From an uncultured Thermoleophilia bacterium (lineage in GTDB: Bacteria; Actinomycetota; Thermoleophilia; UBA2241), in contig CAWHUW010000006.1 in NCBI GenBank assembly GCA_963832655.1, forward strand, positions 124,403-188,402: a DNA stretch of 64,000 bases, written 5' to 3'. Made by a program: the position numbers and the translations under genes. The notes beneath the pieces were generated by a model that searched no databases, was not told where the DNA came from, and saw nothing but the letters and a program-made list of their open reading frames with translations. Positions within the stretch are counted from its first letter, which is position 1. Each line of letters starts with the position of its first letter. This document shows, one piece after another, positions 41,161-51,701 of the stretch.

Positions 41161-41832
41161 CTACGTGAGCACCTTCACGCCGAGCCGAACCTTCGCATAC
41201 TCATCATTCGCCTCACGCAGGCGCGAGGTCGTCTCGTCATCAGTCGTCATGCTCATGAGCATAATCGAGTAGTACGGCGAGTCGGAATAGACGGCCGAAC
41301 ACTCGTGGTCCCCGAAGCGCCGGCGGATGACCCTGAGGTGCTCGGGGAATGGCACGTAGGTGAAGTTCTGGTAAACGGTGACGACTGAACCCGGGGCCAC
41401 TCTCCCAAGAAGTGCGTTCCCTTCCTGGTAGCGAACGTGCTTCACAGTGGCTGTTCGAGGTTCGAATCCGGTGTCAGGATCGAGGAAGAGACACTGAGCG
41501 GGCTCGCTGACGATGTCCGCGAAGTACGCATTCCGATCCCTGTCCAGCATGTGCTCGTGCGATCCGTACAGCGCGACCGAATAGCTGGCAGCCATTCGCT
41601 GCGGGAGATCAGCCAGCAGCTCCGGGTCGTGCCTGCTCCTCAGCAGATCGCAGAGACCCAGGATTCTCGGGTCACCGGGGTACTTCTCGGGAGGGTAGCC
41701 GTCCGAGCCGGGGTCGTCTGGGTTCATCATCCAGACGATCTGGAGCTGCTGGTGCCCAAGCGCCTCAACCAGGAAATGCAGGTAGTCCCATTTGAAGCAG
41801 TCCTTGGCGTCTCCGAGGTACTTGCGCTGCAT
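41161..41832 (-). CDS. hypothetical protein (orphan A)
   Basis: 223-aa intact ORF with SD GAGGAGAAG and lower GC. Motifs LGDAKDCFKWDYL and LFLDPDTGFEP could not be placed in a family. Confidence 0.6.
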   Translation of the reverse strand: MQRKYLGDAKDCFKWDYLHFLVEALGHQQLQIVWMMNPDDPGSDGYPPEKYPGDPRILGLCDLLRSRHDPELLADLPQRMAASYSVALYGSHEHMLDRDRNAYFADIVSEPAQCLFLDPDTGFEPRTATVKHVRYQEGNALLGRVAPGSVVTVYQNFTYVPFPEHLRVIRRRFGDHECSAVYSDSPYYSIMLMSMTTDDETTSRLREANDEYAKVRLGVKVLT

Positions 41833-41916
41833 CAGCTCTTCTCCTCACGATCCCGGGTTTCGACGTTACGCTGATGCTCGAGCGTCGTCACATGCGGACG
41901 AGCCGCGTCAAGTCGA

Positions 41917-41939
41917 CTTGCCGGCAACCCGCCGGCAAG
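41917..41939 (-). terminator. 9-bp perfect hairpin between orphan B and orphan A
   Basis: cttgccggc aaccc gccggcaag, with no U-tract. Confidence 0.35.
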
Positions 41940-41952
41940 ACCAATACGGTGC

Positions 41953-42912
41953 TCAGCTCGGCTCGTCCTCCAGATCTTCTTCGTCGGCAAGGTCGCCGGA
42001 CTCACTGACCAGCCGATTGATCTCACTGCGCTCCAGCTGATCCGCTGCGAGAAACCAGTCCTCAACGAGCTGGAGCTCGTGCTCTAGGGCGCTCGCCTCG
42101 GGGTTGCCCGACAGCATGTGGGCGAACCGCCTCGCGGTGTTCACGCACCACGTAGGCACTTCGATGGCATCTCGTGTCTCGAGAATCGAGTTTCCACAGT
42201 TGGCCGAGTAGTCGTCTATCGTCCACAGATCCTGTTGCTCCAGCGTCGACCAGTTGAGATGCGTTGTGAGGGAACCATTCGCGAACCAGATGTTGTAGAT
42301 GGCCCTGGCTGTGTCACCCTGCGCTCGACTAGCGATTCCGCTGGGCCATGCCTTCAATGAAGCCTTGCCTGCACTCGATTGCAGGTAGCCACGTGCGTCT
42401 TCACCCTCCCCGATGAGGCCCGCTCGCAGCAGAATCATGCTTGCCGCGACCTGCAAGTCCACCAGGGGCGAGATGCTCCTCATGAAAGCCTCGATCTCGC
42501 CCTCAGACGCCTGCTCGGGGCGCTCTGGAGCCTCGATCTGCTCTTCGTGGTAGCGAACCGGCTTCAGGAGGAACTCAACTGAGCGGCAGATGAACCCCCT
42601 GCTGGCGGCTGCGACGTCATCCGCGTTGAGCAGGTACTCCAGGTTAATCACCGCCTCCATCATGGTGCGGCCGAGAGCTGGCGCAGAGTCGGTGCGACCC
42701 GTCTCGAGCAGTGCTACATAGGCGTCAAGCAGCTTGCCGATTCGCACCATGTGCGCTCGGACCACCGCCTTCTCGATTGGATCGACGTTGGGCGGGAATC
42801 CCAGTCCGGCTGCCGCCTCAATGCAGCCCACCGCATAGCGCGCCGTCTCGAGGAGAAGTTGCCGAAAGGTCGACCAGTCGTCGACGCGTTCAGGAAGGGA
42901 TGTGAGAGGCAT
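41953..42912 (-). CDS. hypothetical all-helical protein with acidic tail (orphan B)
   Basis: Intact ORF with a probable start at MPLTSLPERVDDW. It ends ...ESGDLADEEDLEDEPS. No family recognised. Confidence 0.6.
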   Translation of the reverse strand: MPLTSLPERVDDWSTFRQLLLETARYAVGCIEAAAGLGFPPNVDPIEKAVVRAHMVRIGKLLDAYVALLETGRTDSAPALGRTMMEAVINLEYLLNADDVAAASRGFICRSVEFLLKPVRYHEEQIEAPERPEQASEGEIEAFMRSISPLVDLQVAASMILLRAGLIGEGEDARGYLQSSAGKASLKAWPSGIASRAQGDTARAIYNIWFANGSLTTHLNWSTLEQQDLWTIDDYSANCGNSILETRDAIEVPTWCVNTARRFAHMLSGNPEASALEHELQLVEDWFLAADQLERSEINRLVSESGDLADEEDLEDEPS

Positions 42913-43021
42913 GGCTCTTCTTTCGCGAGATTGGGTGAGAATCGCTACCGCGGTGGAACAAGAACGCTCCGCTGGGACCTCCCAGCATTCCACTACCTAT
43001 CGCATACATGTGTGGAGAAGC

Positions 43022-43945
43022 TCAATCCGACGACGAGAGACTCCCTAGAAGTTCAGAGAGCGTCATGTCCAGTCCCTTCGCCAGCTTCCTGAGCGTCTCA
43101 AGCCTCGGATCCCGACGGCCCGTCTCAATCCTACTCAGCGATTCCTGAGCGATACCGCTCCGCTCTGCAACCTGCTCTTGACTGAGGCCCAGCTGCTCCC
43201 TCACGCGGCGCAGCTTCAGCCCCATGCGTAGTCTCAGAGCCTGATCCTCGTCCTCGAGGCGAGCAAGATGGGCTGGGTCGACGAGGGCGCGCAGAGCGCC
43301 AGCATCGATGTCCACCTCATGGCCCCCGGCATCGACTAGCTGTACCGCCTGGCCATGCTCGCGGGCTGATGCACTCACCGGCTTGAACCCCACCTGCCTA
43401 GCGAGCGGCAGAGCATCCCACTGCGCAGCTCGATTCAAGCCATCGCCAAACTCGAGCCAGAGGATGCCGTCGATCGCCGAGAACCTAGCGGTACGCACTC
43501 TGTCTGGCTGCAGTCGCTCGATGAAGCCCCGGAAGAATTCGCCCATGAGCTCGAGCTGTGCGCTCTCGCGAGCCTTCTTGGTGCACTGCAGGTCAAACAC
43601 GAAGAACTTGTCGTCGTTCAGCCGAAGAGCGATGTCCGGTTCGGCCAGTCGCCTCTTGTCCAGAGCGGTCCGAACCAAGAGAACGTATGCAAGGAGCGAC
43701 GGCCCCGCCGCAAGCTCGTCCAGAGTCAGTGAGGAAGTCAGCTCGTGCAGGTCACCAACGACCACGGTGCGGTTGTGAGGGAGCCACTGATGAGCCTCCA
43801 GCAGCGATTGCCAGATGCCTTCGGTCCGAGTTAGCGAGAGCCCTTCAAGCGTCCCTTCGATGTGCCGACGGCACCACTGAGACCGCACCGGACTCGCGTC
43901 AAAGACGATGTGATCAGAGGCGATATGTTCAGTCGTCGGTGCCAT
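43022..43945 (-). CDS. DUF2442-like domain protein with C-terminal XRE-type HTH
   Basis: The C-terminus LRRVREQLGLSQEQVAERSGIAQESLSRIETGRRDPRLETLRKLAKGL is a canonical XRE HTH. The middle (IDGILWLEFGDGLNRAAQWDALPL...GHEVDIDAGALRAL) resembles DUF2442. The ATG at 43945 (SD GAGGA) overlaps the DUF4160 gene end. Confidence 0.65.
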   Translation of the reverse strand: MAPTTEHIASDHIVFDASPVRSQWCRRHIEGTLEGLSLTRTEGIWQSLLEAHQWLPHNRTVVVGDLHELTSSLTLDELAAGPSLLAYVLLVRTALDKRRLAEPDIALRLNDDKFFVFDLQCTKKARESAQLELMGEFFRGFIERLQPDRVRTARFSAIDGILWLEFGDGLNRAAQWDALPLARQVGFKPVSASAREHGQAVQLVDAGGHEVDIDAGALRALVDPAHLARLEDEDQALRLRMGLKLRRVREQLGLSQEQVAERSGIAQESLSRIETGRRDPRLETLRKLAKGLDMTLSELLGSLSSSD

Positions 43946-44195
43946 TGTCCTCGTTCCGATCAGTGCTGATGACACGTTCCCAGGCTTCGAGCATTCGCTC
44001 CTGCCAGTCCTTCAGCTGGCGACGCACCTGCCGCGGAAGCCGTCTCCCCGGCGGTTTCGTGACAGCCAGGGTGTAGAGGTCGACCTGGGCAGTGAGCCCG
44101 CCGGGTAGGCCAGACACGTGGCAGTGCGGAGGCCCGTGATCGAAATCGTAAATCTCCACGGTCACACTCCCGCTCTTCTCACGGAAGACGGCCAT
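43929..44195 (-). CDS. DUF4160-family protein
   Basis: MAVFREKSGSVTVEIYDFDHGPPHCHV is the DUF4160 signature. Confidence 0.7.
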   Translation of the reverse strand: MAVFREKSGSVTVEIYDFDHGPPHCHVSGLPGGLTAQVDLYTLAVTKPPGRRLPRQVRRQLKDWQERMLEAWERVISTDRNEDNGTDD

Positions 44196-44215
44196 CTCAA
44201 CTGGTCCTAACAATC

Positions 44216-44235
44216 ATATGACGCTTTCGTCATAT
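44216..44235. promoter_or_regulatory. perfect 8-bp inverted repeat (candidate operator) in the divergent intergenic region
   Basis: atatgacg cttt cgtcatat lies 21 nt from the DUF4160 start codon. The region is AT-rich relative to its surroundings. Confidence 0.4.
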
Positions 44236-44371
44236 TTCCAAACTCTCCTGCCGTGGCTAGGAGGGGTCATGCCAGCTCCCCGAGAATCGCCCCCTGCTCA
44301 TCACGGATGCTACGCAACCGATTCCCACGGGTCCAGGCCATTGGGACGCGCGGTCGTCGTATGCTCAGTGC

Positions 44372-45531
44372 ATGTGGCGACTTGAGGAGAGCCCCTACGA
44401 CCGCGAACGCTCTACCAAGAGGTCTGGGCTGAGCCGGTGCGCGAGGTCGCAAGCGCTACGGCGTCTCCGACGTCTACCTCGCACGCATCTGCCGCAAGCT
44501 CTCCGTGCCGCTCCCGGGCGCGGCTACTGGGCGAAGCCGAAGGAGCGGCGTCCGCCTCGCCCCCGCTCCCCGACCTCACAAGGCTGAGGCCTTTCGCCTG
44601 CGCCACATCGGGCGAGCGGCGAAGCCCTGAGCAGCGCCGCTACCAGCAGGCAGCTGCAGAGCGCCAAGTCGGAGGCGTCGCCGAGTCGTCGTCGCCGAGA
44701 CGCTCACCGACCCCCACGAGCTCGTGGCGCAGCACGGAGCGGCGCCTACGCCGCGCCAAGGTGCAGGAGGGCGTCGTCTCGGGCCGGCGCTACGGACTCC
44801 TCGACCTCAGCGTCTCCCCCGACTCGCTCGACCGCGGCCTGCGCATCTTCGACGCCCTGCTCAAGGCGCTTGCAGCGGCCGATTTCACCGTCTCGCTCGT
44901 GCCGCCGCCGGCAGAGCGAAGACGACCGGGCGCACGCCCGACGAGCGCGAGCGCGCACGCAGGTGCTCTGCCGCGAGGAGCCGCTGTACGTGTGCCTCTT
45001 CGAGGAGGTCGACGTCGAGCTCGACCCGAAGCCCTATCGCCCGCGACGCAAGCCCGAGGATCCCATCTGGTACACGCCGCCCGAGCAGCCGCGCTACATC
45101 TACAGCCCGACCGGCTGCTCGCCCTGCAGATCACGAACCTCGCCGGCACCGGCGTGCGCGGCCTCTTCCGCGAGACCGAGCGCCGCCGGCTCGAGGACAT
45201 CCTCCCCAGGTTCGTCGCCCAGCTCGCGCCCGCCGCGGAGGCGCTCCGGGCAAAGCACGCCGAGGAGGAGCGGCGGCGGCGGGAGTTGGAGGAGCAGGCG
45301 CGCCGCTGGCGCGAGGAAGAGGAGCGCCGCTGGGAGGAGAGCGCCGGCTCGAGCGCCTCAGCAAGGAGGCGGCCAGCTGGCGAGAGGCCCGCCGGCTGCG
45401 CGCCTACGCCGAGGCCGCGCTCGAGAAGCTGAAGCGTCGCAGGACGATGACGAAGAGGCAGCTGGAAGCGCCGCGTCGAGCTCAAGTGGCTGCTCGACTA
45501 CGCCGACCGCATCGACCCGCTCGGCGACTGA
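44372..45531 (+). pseudogene. conserved hypothetical protein (N-terminal ...VSDVYLARICRKLSVPLPGRGYWAK motif, Arg/Glu coiled coil), at least 5 frame changes
   Basis: Sensible sequence must be stitched from several frames. The pieces are LYQEVWAEPVREVA, YGVSDVYLARICRKLSVPLPGRGYWAKPKE, LLDLSVSPDSLDRGLRIFDALLKALAAADFTVSLV and EEPLYVCLFEEVDVELDPKPYRP. They continue with LALQITNLAGTGVRGLFRETERRRLEDILPRFV...EEERRRRELEEQARRWREEEERRWEE and end with ELKWLLDYADRIDPLGD. Confidence 0.55.
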
Positions 45532-45643
45532 CCCGGCTCAGGTCCCGGGGCTAGGGCGTCGAAGAAGTCTTCAGAGTCCCGGTCGGCCCGAAGCTGCCGT
45601 CCGGGCCGTGTGTCAGCCTGTCGCCCAATGTTGGAGGGGAAGC

Positions 45644-46602
45644 GTGGCAACGAACAAGTCGTGTGACAAGGCGGACTTCGACTGGCCGACGTACAAGAAG
45701 GCGCCTCGCCGGCTGACTGCGGCACAGATGAAGGCCCTCTCGCGAGGGCACCTGCGCCCGATCCTTGACTACGTTCTCGCCTACCCCGAAGTCCGCTTCG
45801 ACGTCCGTCCTGGCGGAGCCAATCTCTACTTCGACGGCGGCAGCCTGCTCCAGCTCGAGGGCGGAACGCGCTGCCCCTTCAGGGGCATCTACAACCTCGG
45901 CTACGTGGGTGAGAAGGGCATGCACGTCTCGGAGCTCGTCGACGCAGCCAGCGTGGAGCGACTGGTCGACAGCTTCCACGAGCGCCGCGAGCAGATGTGG
46001 CAGCATCGCCATTCAGGGAAGGGCCGAGACGAACGCCGCAACCAGCAGGCCATCGCGCGAGCCAACAGCGGACGCCCCCATGCGACTGCGGGCGATTTCG
46101 TCATTGTCGATATCGAGTACGACGAACGGCCGGCGCATCTTCGACCTCGTCGGCTTCGACCGCGCCGGCCTTCCTCGGCCCCGGCTCATCTACGTCGAGC
46201 TCAAGTCCGAGGGTGGTGCCCTGAACAGCAAGTCCGGCCTGCAGGACCACGCGATCGACTACTGGCGAGTTCCTCTGCGCTCAAGACGGCCGACATGTCG
46301 GTCTCTCGCAGCGCGAGCTCTCGAACATGGTCCGGCAGAAGGTCGACCTCGGCCTGCTCTCGGCGGACCTCGGCTTCGAGGAGTTCGCCCCCGAGCCGCC
46401 AGAATTCCTCATACTCTTCGCCGACTACGACGTCTGTCAGGCGCAGCTGACGTCCCCGCTCACGCGCATGCGCGCCGAGATCGAGCAACGCCTCGGTGGC
46501 CTCGAGCTGCTCAAGTTCGCGGACCTCCCCGTCGTCGACGACGGCAGCACTCGAGCTGCTTCGCCTGCGCCGAGACCAGATCATGGACTCGCAGGCCTTT
46601 GA
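45644..46602 (+). pseudogene. PD-(D/E)xK nuclease-like hypothetical protein, 2-3 frame changes
   Basis: GTG start after SD GGAGGGGA. The body reads ...ANLYFDGGSLLQLEGG...ERRNQQAIA...DFVIVDIEYDE / RIFDLVGFDR...PRLIYVELKSEGGAL...GLQDHAIDYW / ...FLILFADYD. The D...(E)xK arrangement (FDLVG...YVELK) suggests a restriction-endonuclease fold. Confidence 0.55.
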
Positions 46603-46629
46603 CGCCTATCGGGAGCGAGCGCACTAGCC

Positions 46630-47895
46630 TTGCGCTACACGATCCACCGCGGCCAGCACGAGATCGGCGGCATGTGCATCGAAGTCGCCGCCAATGATGG
46701 CACCCGAGTCCTTCTCGACCTCGGCATGCCGCTCACGGCGCCGGATGGCGGCGACTTCCCGTGGGGTACCCCGCAGCGACCGACCGCCGAGCTCCTAGCC
46801 GAGGGAGTACTGCGCGACGTCCCCGGCGTGTTCCCAGGTGACCCCACGGCGCCGGGCGTGGCGGCAATCATCCTCAGCCACTCCCACCTCGACCACTTTG
46901 GCCTCGCCCATCACGCGCACCCGACAATCCCCGTGTATGGGAGCGCCGGGACCATCGCCATCCTCGAGGTCGGCCGCGTGTTCTTCCCCGACGCCGCACT
47001 GCCGGCGGACCTGCGCTGCCTGCCGGAGAACGAGACGCTGCGCTTCGGCGAGCTTTCGGTGACGGCGATCGCTGTCGACCACGCAGCGCCAGATTCGCGC
47101 GCCCTGCTCTGCGAGGCAGACGGGCAGCGGCTCCTCTACACGGGCGACCTGAGGGCCCACGGACGCACCGGCTTTCGCTTCGAGACCATGCTCAACGATA
47201 AGCGCCTCCACGGCGTCGACTGGCTGCTGGTCGAAGGCACGACCCTGGGCTCCTCGGGTGGCACGCACGGGCTGCGAAGTGAGGCTGACGTCGAGGAGAG
47301 CCTGGTCGAACTCGCCCGCGGCGGCGCCGACAAACTGGTCGCTGTGGCGGCCTCGGGTCAGAACCTCGATCGCCTGGTCTCCTGCTTCCGCGCCGCCAAG
47401 CGCAGCGGCCGCCTGCTCGTGATTGACGCCTACCAGGCCTACGTCCTGATGCAGCTCGCGCCGCTATCCAAGAACATCCCGCAGGTCGCCTGGGACGATG
47501 TGCGCATTAGCTTCGCACCGCACCAGGTCGAACGCCTCAAGGCAGCCGGGCTCATGGGTCTCGCACGCGAGATGAGCGTGAAGGGCCGGGTATCGAGCGA
47601 TGAGCTTGCCGCGGACCCGGGCAGCTACCTGCTTTGCATGAGAGCGAGCTACGGCGTGACCAAGCTACTCGACAAGATCGGACCGGAGCGAGTCCTTCTC
47701 GTCTGGTCGATGTGGGGTGGCTACTGGCGTCGAGACCGCAGTCCGTTGCGCAGATGGGCCGAGGGCCGCGGCATCGCCGCAGAGTTAGTTCATAGCGGTG
47801 GCCATGCTTGGCCGGAGGATCTCCGCAGGCTCGAAGACTCTTTGGATGCCAAGCGGACCGTGCGAGTCCACACCGATGCAACAAAAGGCAGCTGA
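46630..47895 (+). CDS. MBL-fold metallo-hydrolase (beta-CASP/RNase J-like nuclease architecture)
   Basis: Intact 421-aa ORF: HEIGGMCIEV...LLDLGMPL...ILSHSHLDHFG (HxHxDH)...YTGDL...LLVEGT...HSGGHA. TTG start. Confidence 0.8.
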   Translation: MRYTIHRGQHEIGGMCIEVAANDGTRVLLDLGMPLTAPDGGDFPWGTPQRPTAELLAEGVLRDVPGVFPGDPTAPGVAAIILSHSHLDHFGLAHHAHPTIPVYGSAGTIAILEVGRVFFPDAALPADLRCLPENETLRFGELSVTAIAVDHAAPDSRALLCEADGQRLLYTGDLRAHGRTGFRFETMLNDKRLHGVDWLLVEGTTLGSSGGTHGLRSEADVEESLVELARGGADKLVAVAASGQNLDRLVSCFRAAKRSGRLLVIDAYQAYVLMQLAPLSKNIPQVAWDDVRISFAPHQVERLKAAGLMGLAREMSVKGRVSSDELAADPGSYLLCMRASYGVTKLLDKIGPERVLLVWSMWGGYWRRDRSPLRRWAEGRGIAAELVHSGGHAWPEDLRRLEDSLDAKRTVRVHTDATKGS

Positions 47896-48120: not shown

Positions 48121-49363
48121 CTCAGTTCATGTCGACGGGGCGCAGGACGACGGTGGCGCGCTCGCGCCGCGCACCGGGTCGCGGATCTCGATGCGCGCCT
48201 CGCGGGCGCCGGCGGCCAGCGTCGGATACAGGATGACGGACGAGGCGGTGGCGGCCGCGGCGCCCGGCGCCTCTCTGCTGAGCGCGTAGATGGCGAGCTG
48301 GTAGAGCATCTCGCGGGGCAGGTCGTGCTCCCAGAGGTCGCGGTACTTGGCGTCGAGCATCGCGACCACCTTGCCGCCGCGCCGCACGATGAAGTCGGGG
48401 CGCGGCGCCGGTGAGCGCTTGCCGCGCGGATTGTGCGCCGGGGCGTAGCGCATCATCCCGTACAGGCTCTCCTCGTCGCTCACGACGTAGCCGGGGAGCG
48501 CGTCATGGAGGAAGCGCGAGAGCAGCCGCTGGAAGAAGTGGTTCATGTCGAAGAGGAAGCCCGGGCAGCGAGGCGCCCTCCTCGCCGCGGTCGAGGCCGA
48601 TGCCGGACGAGTCGGCGAGCAGATGCACGAGCTCCAGGGCGGGGCGGTAGGCGCGGGTCAGGCGGCTCTGTTCGGCGGCGAGGTGCGTGAAGGTGGCGCG
48701 ATCCAGGCTGACGGGGCCGACGGTCTCCCCCAGCTGCGCCTCGAGCCGGCGGCAGCGACACGCTGAGTTCGGCGTCGGTGGCGAGGCGCGCGCCGAGAGC
48801 CAGGCCCGCGCGGAGCACCTGATTGACGAGGCAGTCCTCCGAGCGCACGTGGTAGCGGCACGGGAGCGTGGCCGTCTGCGTGGTCTGGCGGGCGAGCGGC
48901 GACGAAGTCGATGCGCCCGCGCGGGCTCGAGAGCGTCTCCTCGCGCGCGCGGTAGGTGCGGTGCAGACCGCGCGCGATCAGCTGGGTGGCCTCGTCCACG
49001 AGCCGGGCGATGACGACGTCCTGGAAGGCCTCCGGCTCGGCCTCGTAGGCGGCGTCGTCGTAGCGGTGCAGCGCCCGCAGGTCGAAGGCGTAGCGCATCA
49101 GGTTCCACAGGGGCAGCCCGTGGAGCTTGGGCCGCACGGTGATGGTGACGTCGCCCAGCCGCACGCGGCCGACGTAGGACCTGGAGCCGACGGCCAGGCC
49201 GTGTCGCGTCTCGACGACCGACAGGCGGTCTTCGTGCGGTCAGCCGGCGCGCGGTCTCCTGCGCCGGCGTCCCGTCGCCGAGGAAGACCTCCCAGCCCTC
49301 GCCGCCGGGCTGCGGCGCCCAGGAGTCCCACTCGCGCAGGCGCACGTGGGCGGTCGGGCGCAC
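48121..49363 (-). pseudogene. mcrC: McrC-like nuclease subunit of McrBC, at least 4 frame changes
   Basis: The C-terminal PD-(D/E)xK core is [13 protein letters not shown]...[23 protein letters not shown]...[12 protein letters not shown]. Upstream pieces (RLGDVTITVRPKL..., RYHVRSEDCLVNQVLRAGL..., RRLEAQLGE...[13 protein letters not shown]) lie in other frames. Confidence 0.75.
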
Positions 49364-49424: not shown

Positions 49425-51701
49425 TCAGTCGCCGCAGGTCCGGCTCAAGGTCTTCGGCCGCGTCGGCTCCTCCCCGGCGGCCTCGGCCTCAGCCTCGGCG
49501 TCGATCGCCTCGGCGGACGTGGTCATGTCCGGCGCCATGGCAAGCAGCGCCTGCTTGAGCGCCTCGCGGTTGTCCTCCTGGAACAGCTCGACGTGCACCC
49601 GCTGAGTCTCGGCGTCCACGAACTCGCGGCCGAGGATGTCGGCGAGCATGCGGTAGTCCTCGTAGCAGTACTCCTGGAGCAGCGGCACGATGTCGTCGCG
49701 CACGATGCGCGCGAGGCCGGCCAGCGTCGCCACCGGGCTGCCCTTCTCGAGCAGATAGGCGTGCCCGACCTGGAGGTTCCTGCCGTCGGCGCCCCGCTCT
49801 CGACGATCTTGCTGTTGAGCGCCTCGAGCCAGGCGCCGAGCGGGATGCCGTCGACCATGACGCCGCCCAGCAGCTCCGGCTCGGGCATCAGCTCGATGAA
49901 GCCGAAGCGCCGCCGCAGCGCCGTGTCGAGCAGCGCGATGGAGCGGTCGGCCGTGTTCATGGTGCCGATGACGGCGACGTTGGGCGGCACCGCGAACGGC
50001 CGCCGCGAGAGCGGCAGGTGGACCTCGCGCCCGCGCTTGTCCTTCTCCAGCACGGTGAGCAGCTCGCCGAAGATGCGCGGCACGTCGCCGCGGTTGATCT
50101 CGTCGATGATGAGGACGAACCGCTCCTGCGGGCGCGCGGCCGCCTCCTCGCACAGCGCCTTGAACACGCCGTCGCGCAGGGGGAACACCAGCTGTCCGTC
50201 GCGCTCCTCGGGGCGGTAGCCCTCGAGGAAGTCCTCGTAGCCGTAGGCGGGGTGGAACGTGCAGAGGCGGATGTGGCGCGCGACGCCGGCCCGCTCCTCT
50301 TCGGTGAGGTCGGCGCCGGCCTTGCCGTACAGCTGCTGCGCGAGAATGGCCTCGGCCCCGCGCTGCGCCCAGTACGTCTTGCCGGTGCCGGCGGCCCGTA
50401 GAGGATGACCTGGCCCTTGCGGTCGAGGACCGATTGGATGTGACCTTCCCGGCCCGAAAGCGCTGCCGAGCCGGGCGTGAGGCGAGCGACCGAACTCGGG
50501 ATGCAGCAGCCGCCGCTCGACGGCGAGCCTGTTGCCGCGGGCTGGTGTACCAGCGAGAGCCCGCGCCCAGCCCTTCTCGTCCGGGACAGCCCCACTCCCC
50601 AAGGTCGAGCCACTTGACCGGCCGCTGATGAGCGAGCGGTGACTCCGCGTCGTACTGGTAGCCGCCGGTCACCGTCCGATGGCCATGCCCTTCTCGCCCT
50701 CGGTCACGACGACGGTCGCCCTCCTCCACATTGAGCGCCAGATTGAAGATGTCCTGCGTGACGTCGTAGGCGTTCGCGCCCTGCAGGTCGATGGCGTCGA
50801 CTCGGCCGCGCAGCTCCTGCTTGCCGGCCTTCGTGTACTTGATGTCGGAGACGTCGCCGGTCTCACCCCACGGCAGGCGACCTGACGCCCGACGCGCATG
50901 AGGTCGGCGGCGCCGGCACGGCAGCTTGCCGCGTCGATGCGCCAGCAGTCGCGCGGAGAACCGAAGGCCGTCCTGGAGCGCCTGGGTCAGCTGCGCCAGG
51001 GGCGCCCGAACTCCCGCATCAGCGCCACGTAGCGGCCGGCGCATACGTACCGCCCTTTGTCCGCGGAGGCTGCTGCAGGAGCTTGACCAGGTAGAACCGC
51101 TGGAAGTCCTCGTTGTGGAAGTCGTCCAGCTTGTCCGGGAACACCAGGTGGAAGTACTTGTGGCCCCATGACCAGCCGCCGACGAGCGTCACGTGCTCGT
51201 TGAAGATGCTGGAGCTCGAGGTAGTCGGCGTCGTTGGCGTCCGCCGGCAAGCTCCTCGAGCGACCTGCAGCCGGCCACCAGCTGATCCCGTTGCGCGCGT
51301 CGCGAACTCGATGGCCTCGTCCTCGGAGACTGGGCGCCCCCCGCTGTGCTCTGACGCGAACCATCCACTGGCCGGTCGGCGCTCTGGTAGATGCCGAACT
51401 TCAGGGCGCTGCCGCCGGCGATGCTGCCGAACAGCCTCGGGAACTCGTCGTCGTTCTTGAACTCGAGCCAGTACATGAGGCAGTCCTGGCCCTCGCGCTT
51501 GTGCATCCGCTCGAGGAGCGCAAGGCCATCGAGGCCGCCCAGCGCCTCGGGCCCAAAACGCGCGCGGAAGTTGGCGTAGTAGGTGTCGAGCTTCTGCCAG
51601 CGTTCGAACCCCGCCCGGTTCTCAAGGGTCCTGGGAACGCCTGATCAACGCGATCCCTATGCTCGGGCAGCAGCCCTGCGTGGCCCCAGCCGCGTCGGCA
51701 T
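49425..51701 (-). pseudogene. mcrB: McrB-like AAA+ GTPase with long N-terminal domain, at least 6 frame changes
   Basis: [16 protein letters not shown] is a Walker A motif split by a frame change. It is followed by [16 protein letters not shown]...[25 protein letters not shown]...[26 protein letters not shown]. The N-terminal domain pieces are YWLEFKNDDEFPRLFGSIAGGSALKFGIYQ and KYFHLVFPDKLDDFHNEDFQRFYL. Confidence 0.8.

Follow-up and report, generated by a model that had tools for sequence, protein, structure and literature searches.

A two-gene cassette of a PD-(D/E)xK-like protein and a beta-CASP nuclease-type enzyme as a candidate defence system in bacterial genomes

Do three neighboring genes in a defence island of an uncultured Thermoleophilia bacterium form a defence system without a name, and which of them belong to it? 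The genes lie in a 64,000-nucleotide (nt) stretch of contig CAWHUW010000006.1 (assembly GCA_963832655.1, positions 124,403 to 188,402), which we call the window. A preliminary description of this DNA had recognized three co-directional plus-strand genes, separated by short gaps, that converge on McrBC in the vicinity of restriction-modification (R-M) genes, and had proposed them as a three-gene module. We refer to them as gene1, gene2 (encoding a PD-(D/E)xK-like protein), and the MBL gene (encoding a protein of the metallo-beta-lactamase fold). The gene bounds (Table 1) were set by three-frame translation and frameshift-aware alignment to intact homologues, and for gene2 also by tblastn with P0122, P0123, P0129, and L054 (L numbers denote loci and P numbers denote homologous proteins). 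The layout was confirmed: gene1 and gene2 are ~110 nt apart, the gene2 stop is followed after 2 nt by the TTG start of the MBL gene, and broken McrC and McrB genes on the minus strand (Pfam McrBC and AAA_5 matches) converge on them. The R-M neighbors also proved to be there, as fragments of a type III methyltransferase and ResIII at ~54 to 58 kb (type III R-M). Judged by sequence, gene1, gene2, and the MBL gene are real genes and not chance open reading frames (ORFs).

The conserved module consists of two genes, gene2 and the MBL gene, and not three. A total of 39 genome loci were collected via the MBL protein, more were added by exact-protein look-ups, and a gene2 hidden Markov model (HMM) was applied to the loci. 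Gene2 lies directly upstream of the MBL gene in ~25 distinct loci (L001, L003 to L006, L010, L011, L014 to L017, L019, L022, L025, L032, L033, L042 to L044, L046, L048 to L051, and L054) and is divergently adjacent to it in two more (L002 and L007). The hosts of the pair are metagenome-assembled genomes (MAGs) of Actinomycetota, Thermoleophilia, Coriobacteriia, Planctomycetota, and Gammaproteobacteria. Only 1 to 2 nt separate the gene2 stop from the MBL start in the window, L042, L048, L051, and L054, and because the genes abut, it is suggested that they are translated together. The reciprocal test gave a similar picture, with the MBL gene abutting gene2 in 7 and lying within 4 kb of it in 2 of the 11 metagenome loci that were found via gene2 alone (25 to 28% identity). 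The Rhizobium phaseoli plasmid pRphaN671a (L075, 5989 to 8230) encodes an MBL protein 31% identical to that of the window and then a gene2-like protein, which aligns with the gene2 profile at an hhalign probability of 95% (expect value [E], 4e-8). An Ochrobactrum plasmid (L076) has an arrangement like that of L075 with a weaker gene2 match. In all, gene2 and the MBL gene abut in ~30 loci of several phyla, and the pair is a widespread, horizontally mobile cassette without a name.

The proposal of a three-gene module therefore held for gene2 and the MBL gene, which co-occur in ~25 loci and in 9/11 of the reciprocal loci, but not for gene1, which is confined to one clade. Gene1 adjoins the pair in L006 and in L054/55 and lies at most 1 kb away in L048/50; the gene1 HMM found nothing beside the pair in ~20 other loci with enough upstream sequence. 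It is unlikely that the locus represents a true three-gene system in which gene1 would serve both nucleases as an indispensable DNA-binding or scaffold subunit. The intact co-directional trio of L054/55, the trio of L006, and the close gene1 copies of L048/50 favor such a system, as do, indirectly, several gene1-family matches on contigs sized like those with gene2/MBL matches. However, the ~20 loci without gene1 argue against it, the gene1 family far exceeds the trios in number, and gene1-family genes occur elsewhere without the pair. One of them, P0156, the closest homologue (83% identical to the corrected gene1), lies without the pair beside a different McrBC in L052/53, another stands alone in L056, a toxin-antitoxin-rich island of Carboxydochorda subterranea, and a third follows a NucS_C gene in L072 to L074. 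The three-gene arrangement is real but limited to the clade nearest the window, and gene1 is not a core component.

The MBL protein had been described as a full-length MBL-fold enzyme with HxHxDH and a beta-CASP-like layout, and its ligands, profile matches, and Foldseek results are in agreement with this. It matches Lactamase_B_2 in Pfam (E, 2e-15) and carries HSHLDH. The residues H84, H86, D88, H89, H151, and D173 are found in the window protein and do not vary among 20 homologues, and the C-terminal H392 (HSGGHA) and H414 (VHTD) are invariant as well; by analogy, these two would correspond to beta-CASP motifs B and C. A histidine at motif C is typical of the RNA-acting members of the beta-CASP group. 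When the 20-sequence MBL profile was compared with PDB sequences, 2AZ4 was the best match (E, 1e-22), followed by RNase J, TTHA0252, and SNM1A. The AlphaFold2 model of the MBL protein (predicted local distance difference test [pLDDT], 79) matched 2AZ4 (E, 2e-19), RNase J, TTHA0252, CPSF-73, and type VII Cas14 over its full length in Foldseek, and it aligned over ~450 columns with the first four of these, each at a probability of 1.00. The window protein is 91% identical to P0002, with no frameshift. Sequence and model together indicate that the MBL protein is a complete beta-CASP nuclease-type enzyme with all of its metal-binding motifs kept.

On sequence grounds, this enzyme is not an RNase J orthologue, because its RNase J family scores are far under the cutoffs (TIGR00649, 41.5 bits against 400; NF047419, 26.1 against 820). 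The match to the RNase J model spans only positions 8 to 249 of 546, and the RNase J C-terminal dimerization domain is absent. The preliminary description had raised clustering with housekeeping enzymes of the RNase J/CPSF type as evidence against a defence module; by its scores, the MBL protein is not a housekeeping RNase J. It is a highly improbable explanation that the MBL protein serves the cell in RNA processing or DNA repair, as an enzyme of the RNase J, CPSF, or SNM1 type with an accessory protein, and sits in the island incidentally. The label "ribonuclease J" that JGI gives to many members, the position of RNase J and TTHA0252 as the best functional structural relatives, and a conservation as strong as in housekeeping proteins would be consistent with such a role. 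They are offset not only by the low TIGR00649 score and the missing C-terminal domain but also by the patchy multiphylum distribution of the family, by its variable and defence-rich flanks, and by a G+C content of the region that lies under that of the rest of the window. Members occur in Actinomycetota, Planctomycetota, Gammaproteobacteria, Acidobacteria, and Verrucomicrobia at 65 to 80% identity, and this patchy distribution across phyla indicates horizontal transfer. The family is not typically phage borne, as viral contigs of IMG/VR contained MBL relatives at 32 to 45% identity only and the family proper was not found there. Some members carry an insertion, either after approximately residue 134 (L046, 10952 to 12547, a protein of 531 amino acids [aa], and L047) or near residue 231 (L013, 1034 to 2470).

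The gene2 product is a putative PD-(D/E)xK-like nuclease, an assignment that we consider likely but not proven from its sequence and from the model of a homologue. The restriction-endonuclease-like core FDLVG...LIYVELK that had been picked out earlier is part of RRIFDLVGFD...RLIYVELK, and both the signature and the predicted topology point the same way, with no match in the libraries and no significant one in Foldseek. Six residues (E130, D156, E158, D167, E185, and K187) are invariant across 32 members of the gene2 family, and 6/6 are present in the window copy; the corrected window protein is 73% identical to P0123. The AlphaFold2 model of P0123 (pLDDT, 90; predicted template modeling score, 0.89) contains a small N-terminal alpha/beta domain that precedes the core. 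The core runs through a helix, three strands, a second, long helix, and a final strand. This is the order seen in PD-(D/E)xK nucleases (alpha-beta-beta-beta-alpha-beta), and the conserved residues fall on the elements H129-140, E164-172, and E181-187 of the model, in PD-(D/E)xK order. Searches with the corrected protein, intact homologues, and a profile gave zero matches in Pfam, NCBIfam, PADLOC, PHROGs, and PDB sequences. Comparison of the model with PDB and BFVD by Foldseek gave nothing at an E of ≤0.001, with BsmI on top (E, 0.09), followed by BstEII and SduA. An exhaustive profile search returned 1,075 clusters (50% identity) at an E of ≤0.001 and 431 at an E of ≤1e-10, and this sizeable family is unannotated. 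Fusion partners among 150 remote gene2 relatives were uninformative, save for one PDDEXK_1 match and one weak RMMBL match.

We additionally compared the divergence of the two partners. Over 91 locus pairs in which both genes are intact, the MBL proteins were never less than 60% identical (median, 66%), whereas gene2 went as low as 17% (median, 26%), and the two identities were barely correlated (rho, 0.28). In the comparison of the window with L054, the MBL gene had a synonymous divergence (dS) of 0.43 and gene2, next to it, one of 0.86; the ratio of nonsynonymous to synonymous divergence (dN/dS) was 0.11 and 0.27, respectively. The two-fold gap in dS between adjacent genes is a possible sign of recombination between the two, and gene2 alleles may be exchanged in this way. 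The pattern of sequence divergence fits what would be expected of a diversifying recognition component beside a strongly constrained effector.

This asymmetry between sensor and effector, together with the gene order and the tight spacing, suggests that gene2 and the MBL gene constitute a two-component nuclease defence module, a reading to which we assign a probability of roughly 0.55. The variable gene2 protein would recognize the invader and introduce the first endonucleolytic cut or nick into the foreign nucleic acid, which is most likely DNA. As relatives with the beta-CASP fold are 5'-to-3' exo- and endonucleases, the MBL enzyme would continue the degradation from the ends so created. In a close alternative, the MBL enzyme would degrade RNA and give abortive infection, since RNA-acting enzymes are its closest relatives and its motif C histidine is of that type as well. 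In either version, gene1 would be a separate gene of the island; it accompanies the pair in one clade, perhaps as a regulator or an adaptor, and would not be a defining part. A wider reading is tentative and, in our estimate, somewhat short of even odds: gene2 and the MBL gene would form a phylum-spanning anti-phage or anti-plasmid family, in which a hypervariable PD-(D/E)xK sensor-nuclease with recombination-swapped alleles directs or licenses a near-frozen beta-CASP nuclease. The conservation of the effector would in that case reflect an obligatory contact with a conserved host machine (e.g., transcribing RNA polymerase or the ribosome), comparable to the beta-CASP "torpedo" enzymes.

The same tight coupling of the two genes, and the dS values of 0.43 and 0.86 with the recombination that they suggest, might be attributed to a toxin-antitoxin-like or addiction module or to a selfish mobile nuclease cassette, which would stabilize or spread itself rather than defend its host. 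The toxin-antitoxin-rich surroundings in L046 and L056, the plasmid copies, and the transposases and resolvases nearby would also be consistent with this explanation, which we nevertheless judge to be improbable. Both proteins are large (~330 and ~420 aa) and have kept their catalytic residues, unlike a typical antitoxin, no flanking repeats that would mark a mobile cassette were found in the window, and most of the neighbors are genuine defence systems. Whether such a module differs from abortive-infection defence is in part a matter of terms.

The neighborhoods of the pair are varied and contain many defence genes. They include BREX genes (PglZ and BrxL), MmeI-type R-M together with DISARM-like genes, helicase/MZB/PLD genes, and Pycsar, and, elsewhere, PLD and NYN genes. 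Further neighborhoods include toxin-antitoxin genes with Eco57I/XhoI, a KAP NTPase with SIR2 and a resolvase, and AbiEi, and on the Rhizobium plasmid (L075) the pair is flanked by an N6-methyltransferase, Eco57I, and a large GIY-YIG nuclease. When 150 neighboring ORFs from 26 loci were scanned with PADLOC, the matches were DruE, DrmA/DrmC, AbiEii, MADS components, AriA, PglX, NsnB, and HEC-09, as well as many R-M methyltransferases. McrBC is an inconsistent neighbor; it adjoins the pair in the window but is absent beside it in L001, L002, L042 to L044, L046, L048, and L054. The genes under study were not recognized at the outset as any named defence system, and no model in PADLOC-DB v2.0.0 matches the window proteins or intact gene1, gene2, or MBL homologues at an E of up to 0.1. 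An assignment to a known system or to prophage functions, which was another objection foreseen, did not arise either, as Pfam, NCBIfam, PADLOC, and PHROGs return nothing for gene1 and gene2 beyond a subthreshold RWP-RK match of the gene1 N terminus.

The anti-phage function of the pair is a candidate function that we infer from gene neighborhood only, and several observations weigh against the two-component defence module. The enrichment of defence genes near the pair is qualitative. A methyltransferase or other self-protection gene is not consistently linked to the pair. The nuclease call for gene2 comes solely from motifs and the order of secondary-structure elements, with nothing significant from Foldseek or the HMM libraries. 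The MBL gene also occurs without a detectable gene2 in L009, L018, and L020 (L013 has little upstream sequence). Finally, real frame breaks in the window would mean that, of the cassette, only the MBL gene is still alive in this genome.

These frame breaks had been noted from the start, with the MBL gene described as intact and both of its partners as requiring frame changes, and the counts support this. The breaks are single-base events, with 15 to 16 insertions or deletions (indels) in gene1, 3 insertions in gene2 (at ~46121, 46266, and 46543), and none in the MBL gene. A decaying remnant, in which gene1 and gene2 would be true pseudogenes and the MBL gene alone is kept, perhaps in another role, is a rather doubtful explanation of the locus. 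The gradient of breaks toward zero over the 1,266 nt of the MBL gene is what decay could produce; the long-read MAG of L006 repeats this gradient, the short-read contig L001 has a split gene2, and the nearby McrBC and type III R-M genes are broken too while 1 to 33 kb is largely intact. However, the corrected gene1 is 82% identical to an intact homologue and has no in-frame stops and a dN/dS of 0.30, and its 16 indels against only ~68 amino acid differences are far from the usual indel-to-substitution ratio of decay. In addition, many of the related loci come from long-read MAG assemblies, which are prone to indel errors. The corrected genes in general lack in-frame stops, are highly identical to intact homologues, and have a dN/dS of ~0.3, and all three genes have intact copies in L054 (gene1, 389 aa; gene2, 334 aa; MBL, 421 aa). 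Because the indels of gene1 are too many for its few substitutions, old decay is disfavored, and assembly or sequencing error or very recent damage is more likely than old pseudogenes. With frame breaks that are recent or erroneous, the locus would probably have been functional until recently, if it is not functional still.

The breaks cluster at 33 to 58 kb of the window, in McrC, McrB, the type III methyltransferase, ResIII, gene1, and gene2. Long and mostly intact ORFs with high third-position G+C (GC3) occupy 1 to 33 kb, and within 41 to 58 kb the MBL gene is the sole long intact ORF with high GC3. Simple homopolymer errors were rejected as the cause of the breaks, since the 3 gene2 insertions are outside G/C runs and the MBL gene has a similar count of G/C runs of ≥4.

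Gene1 was said to have an N-terminal motif and a long Arg/Glu coiled coil, and both are present in the sequence. It contains KRYGVSDVYLARICRKLSVPLPG and RGYWAK, the two parts being separated by a frame change. Its architecture comprises an N-terminal LYQEVWAEP...YGVSDVYLARICRKLSVPLPGRGYWAK module, a middle domain, a long Arg/Glu-rich helical region, and a C-terminal W..YADRIDPL motif. The corrected protein aligns end to end with intact proteins of ~385 aa (82% identity to P0157 and 83% to P0156), and its family comprises at least 249 proteins, for which Pfam has no domain. An RWP-RK match (helix-turn-helix type) at residues ~7 to 46 was obtained for 4/8 homologues, with a best E of 7e-5 that is subthreshold, and the N terminus is a probable helix-turn-helix. 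In L052 (8001 to 13494) and L053, P0156 adjoins an Mrr_N-McrB/McrC system without gene2 or the MBL gene, a layout that echoes the window. An insertion of the pair between gene1 and McrBC relative to L052 was considered and rejected, as the McrBC genes of the two loci are only 43 to 52% identical over short pieces and the contexts are not orthologous. In L072 (6952 to 9038), L073, and L074, the gene1-family gene for P0216 lies 33 nt downstream of the gene for a NucS_C-domain (PD-(D/E)xK) protein; an MBL-family gene is ~7 kb away. It may be that gene1-type proteins have different nucleases as partners.

Several loci of the pair have further features. In L075 and L076, the order of the pair is swapped, with the MBL gene first and the gene2-like gene second; both hosts are cultured, and a small overlapping ORF precedes the MBL gene. 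Effector-like genes that lie closely 3' of the MBL gene or overlap it encode an ADP-ribosylglycohydrolase (L042, 12294 to 13298), a PLD-family protein (L044, 12181 to 13305), and an 888-aa SIR2_2 protein (L048, 6852 to 9518), and these trailing genes could be separate systems or variable third components. A protein with GIY_YIG_2 and DUF6884, with or without DUF7662, is encoded repeatedly at a distance of a few kb from the pair, in contexts that are otherwise unrelated (L001, 4634 to 6085; L042/L043, 8082 to 9167), and it may be another uncharacterized island nuclease.

The remaining features around the genes are listed in Table 1. The G+C content of the window is ~70% and falls to 61 to 69% over ~41 to 59 kb. 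The four genes of the minus-strand block, which is divergent from gene1, are intact and have a G+C content of ~61%, and the block looks like a separately acquired module. A promoter and terminator scan gave no terminator, and its sole promoter-like site is on the minus strand at 44213 to 44241. There is no tRNA gene beside the island, the nearest ones being at 14.3 kb and 63.8 kb.

Table 1. Coordinates of the gene2-MBL pair and of neighboring features in the window
Feature	Position	Strand	Start, stop, or basis	Size or content	Role
Gene1	44372..45531	+	ATG start 44372, stop 45529-45531	~385 codons, frame breaks	Accessory/neighboring gene
Gene2	45644..46627	+	GTG start 45644, stop 46625-46627	~327 codons	Variable partner of core pair
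MBL gene	46630..47895	+	TTG start 46630	Intact ORF, 421 aa, 1266 nt	Conserved partner of core pair
McrC fragments	48127-48546 and 48658-49164	-	Pfam McrBC matches		Convergent, context only
McrB AAA_5 fragment	49523-50602	-	Pfam AAA_5 match		Convergent, context only
Four-gene block	41161-44213	-		Unknown, 223 aa; DUF5677, 346 aa; 317 aa with C-terminal XRE helix-turn-helix; DUF4160, 94 aa	

How does the pair compare with known proteins and systems? By both sequence profile and fold, the MBL protein is best matched by EF2904 (2AZ4) from Enterococcus faecalis V583, a beta-CASP protein that stands alone and whose function is unknown. The two are similar in size, have no extra domains, and align over ~425 residues at a Foldseek TM score of ~0.70, but they are only ~20% identical. 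RNase J, TTHA0252, and CPSF-73 share with the MBL protein the two-domain architecture of MBL and beta-CASP, HxHxDH, the His/Asp ligands, and the motif C histidine. Their identity to it is 15 to 22%, however, and the MBL protein has neither the RNase J C-terminal domain nor the KH domains of CPSF. Unlike the genes for RNase J and CPSF-73, the MBL gene is accessory, island borne, and paired with a PD-(D/E)xK-like gene.

Cas14 of type VII CRISPR-Cas is a beta-CASP nuclease that serves as an immune effector (PMC13069675, PMC10910872). It is among the fold matches of the MBL protein (9j9e; E, 2e-13), but the MBL protein scores 15.7 bits against a cutoff of 800 with NF045584, and its partner is a single PD-(D/E)xK-like protein. 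The Pfam lists of seven pair neighborhoods contain no Cas families, including Cas5/Cas7, although no search was aimed at CRISPR arrays. In the trypsin-MBL module (HamM/"canu," accessory to Hachiman, AVAST, Lamassu, and DRT), a partner controls an MBL-fold nuclease, a ComEC-like MBL proenzyme that is activated by a fused trypsin-like protease (PMC12799240). The likeness is that an MBL-fold nuclease is encoded beside a partner gene in anti-phage loci. In contrast, the MBL protein of the pair is of the beta-CASP type and is encoded downstream of its partner, and the gene2 family is without a protease domain. The PD-(D/E)xK defence nucleases (type II and IV restriction enzymes, Shedu SduA, and Hachiman HamA) resemble the gene2 protein in E...D...ExK and, going by its model, in the core strand order. 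The gene2 protein differs from them in having no significant sequence or fold match and no DUF4263, DUF1837, or PDDEXK Pfam match, and gene2 has no consistently linked methyltransferase and no linked helicase. Within the literature searched on beta-CASP or MBL proteins and defence, we found type VII Cas14 and the trypsin-MBL module only, and this pair is undescribed there. It fails the defining features of both, and it represents known folds in a new combination, as a candidate nuclease system of defence islands.

The apparent pseudogenes at this locus are not to be read at face value. Intact versions exist, namely, the trio of L054 and the pair on pRphaN671a of Rhizobium phaseoli, a cultured host, with the accessions WP_081278359.1 and WP_064832668.1. 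The gene2 family has ~1,000 clusters (50% identity), and a name for it would give an annotation to many "hypothetical" genes of soil and sediment bacteria. If the wider reading is true, the pair would be the first stand-alone, non-CRISPR defence system that is built on a beta-CASP effector. If the pair acts in defence at all, it would bring a new effector class, a stand-alone beta-CASP nuclease, into bacterial immunity beyond type VII CRISPR. It would also provide a natural example of a diversifying sensor beside a near-invariant effector, which would be useful for studying the evolution of specificity.

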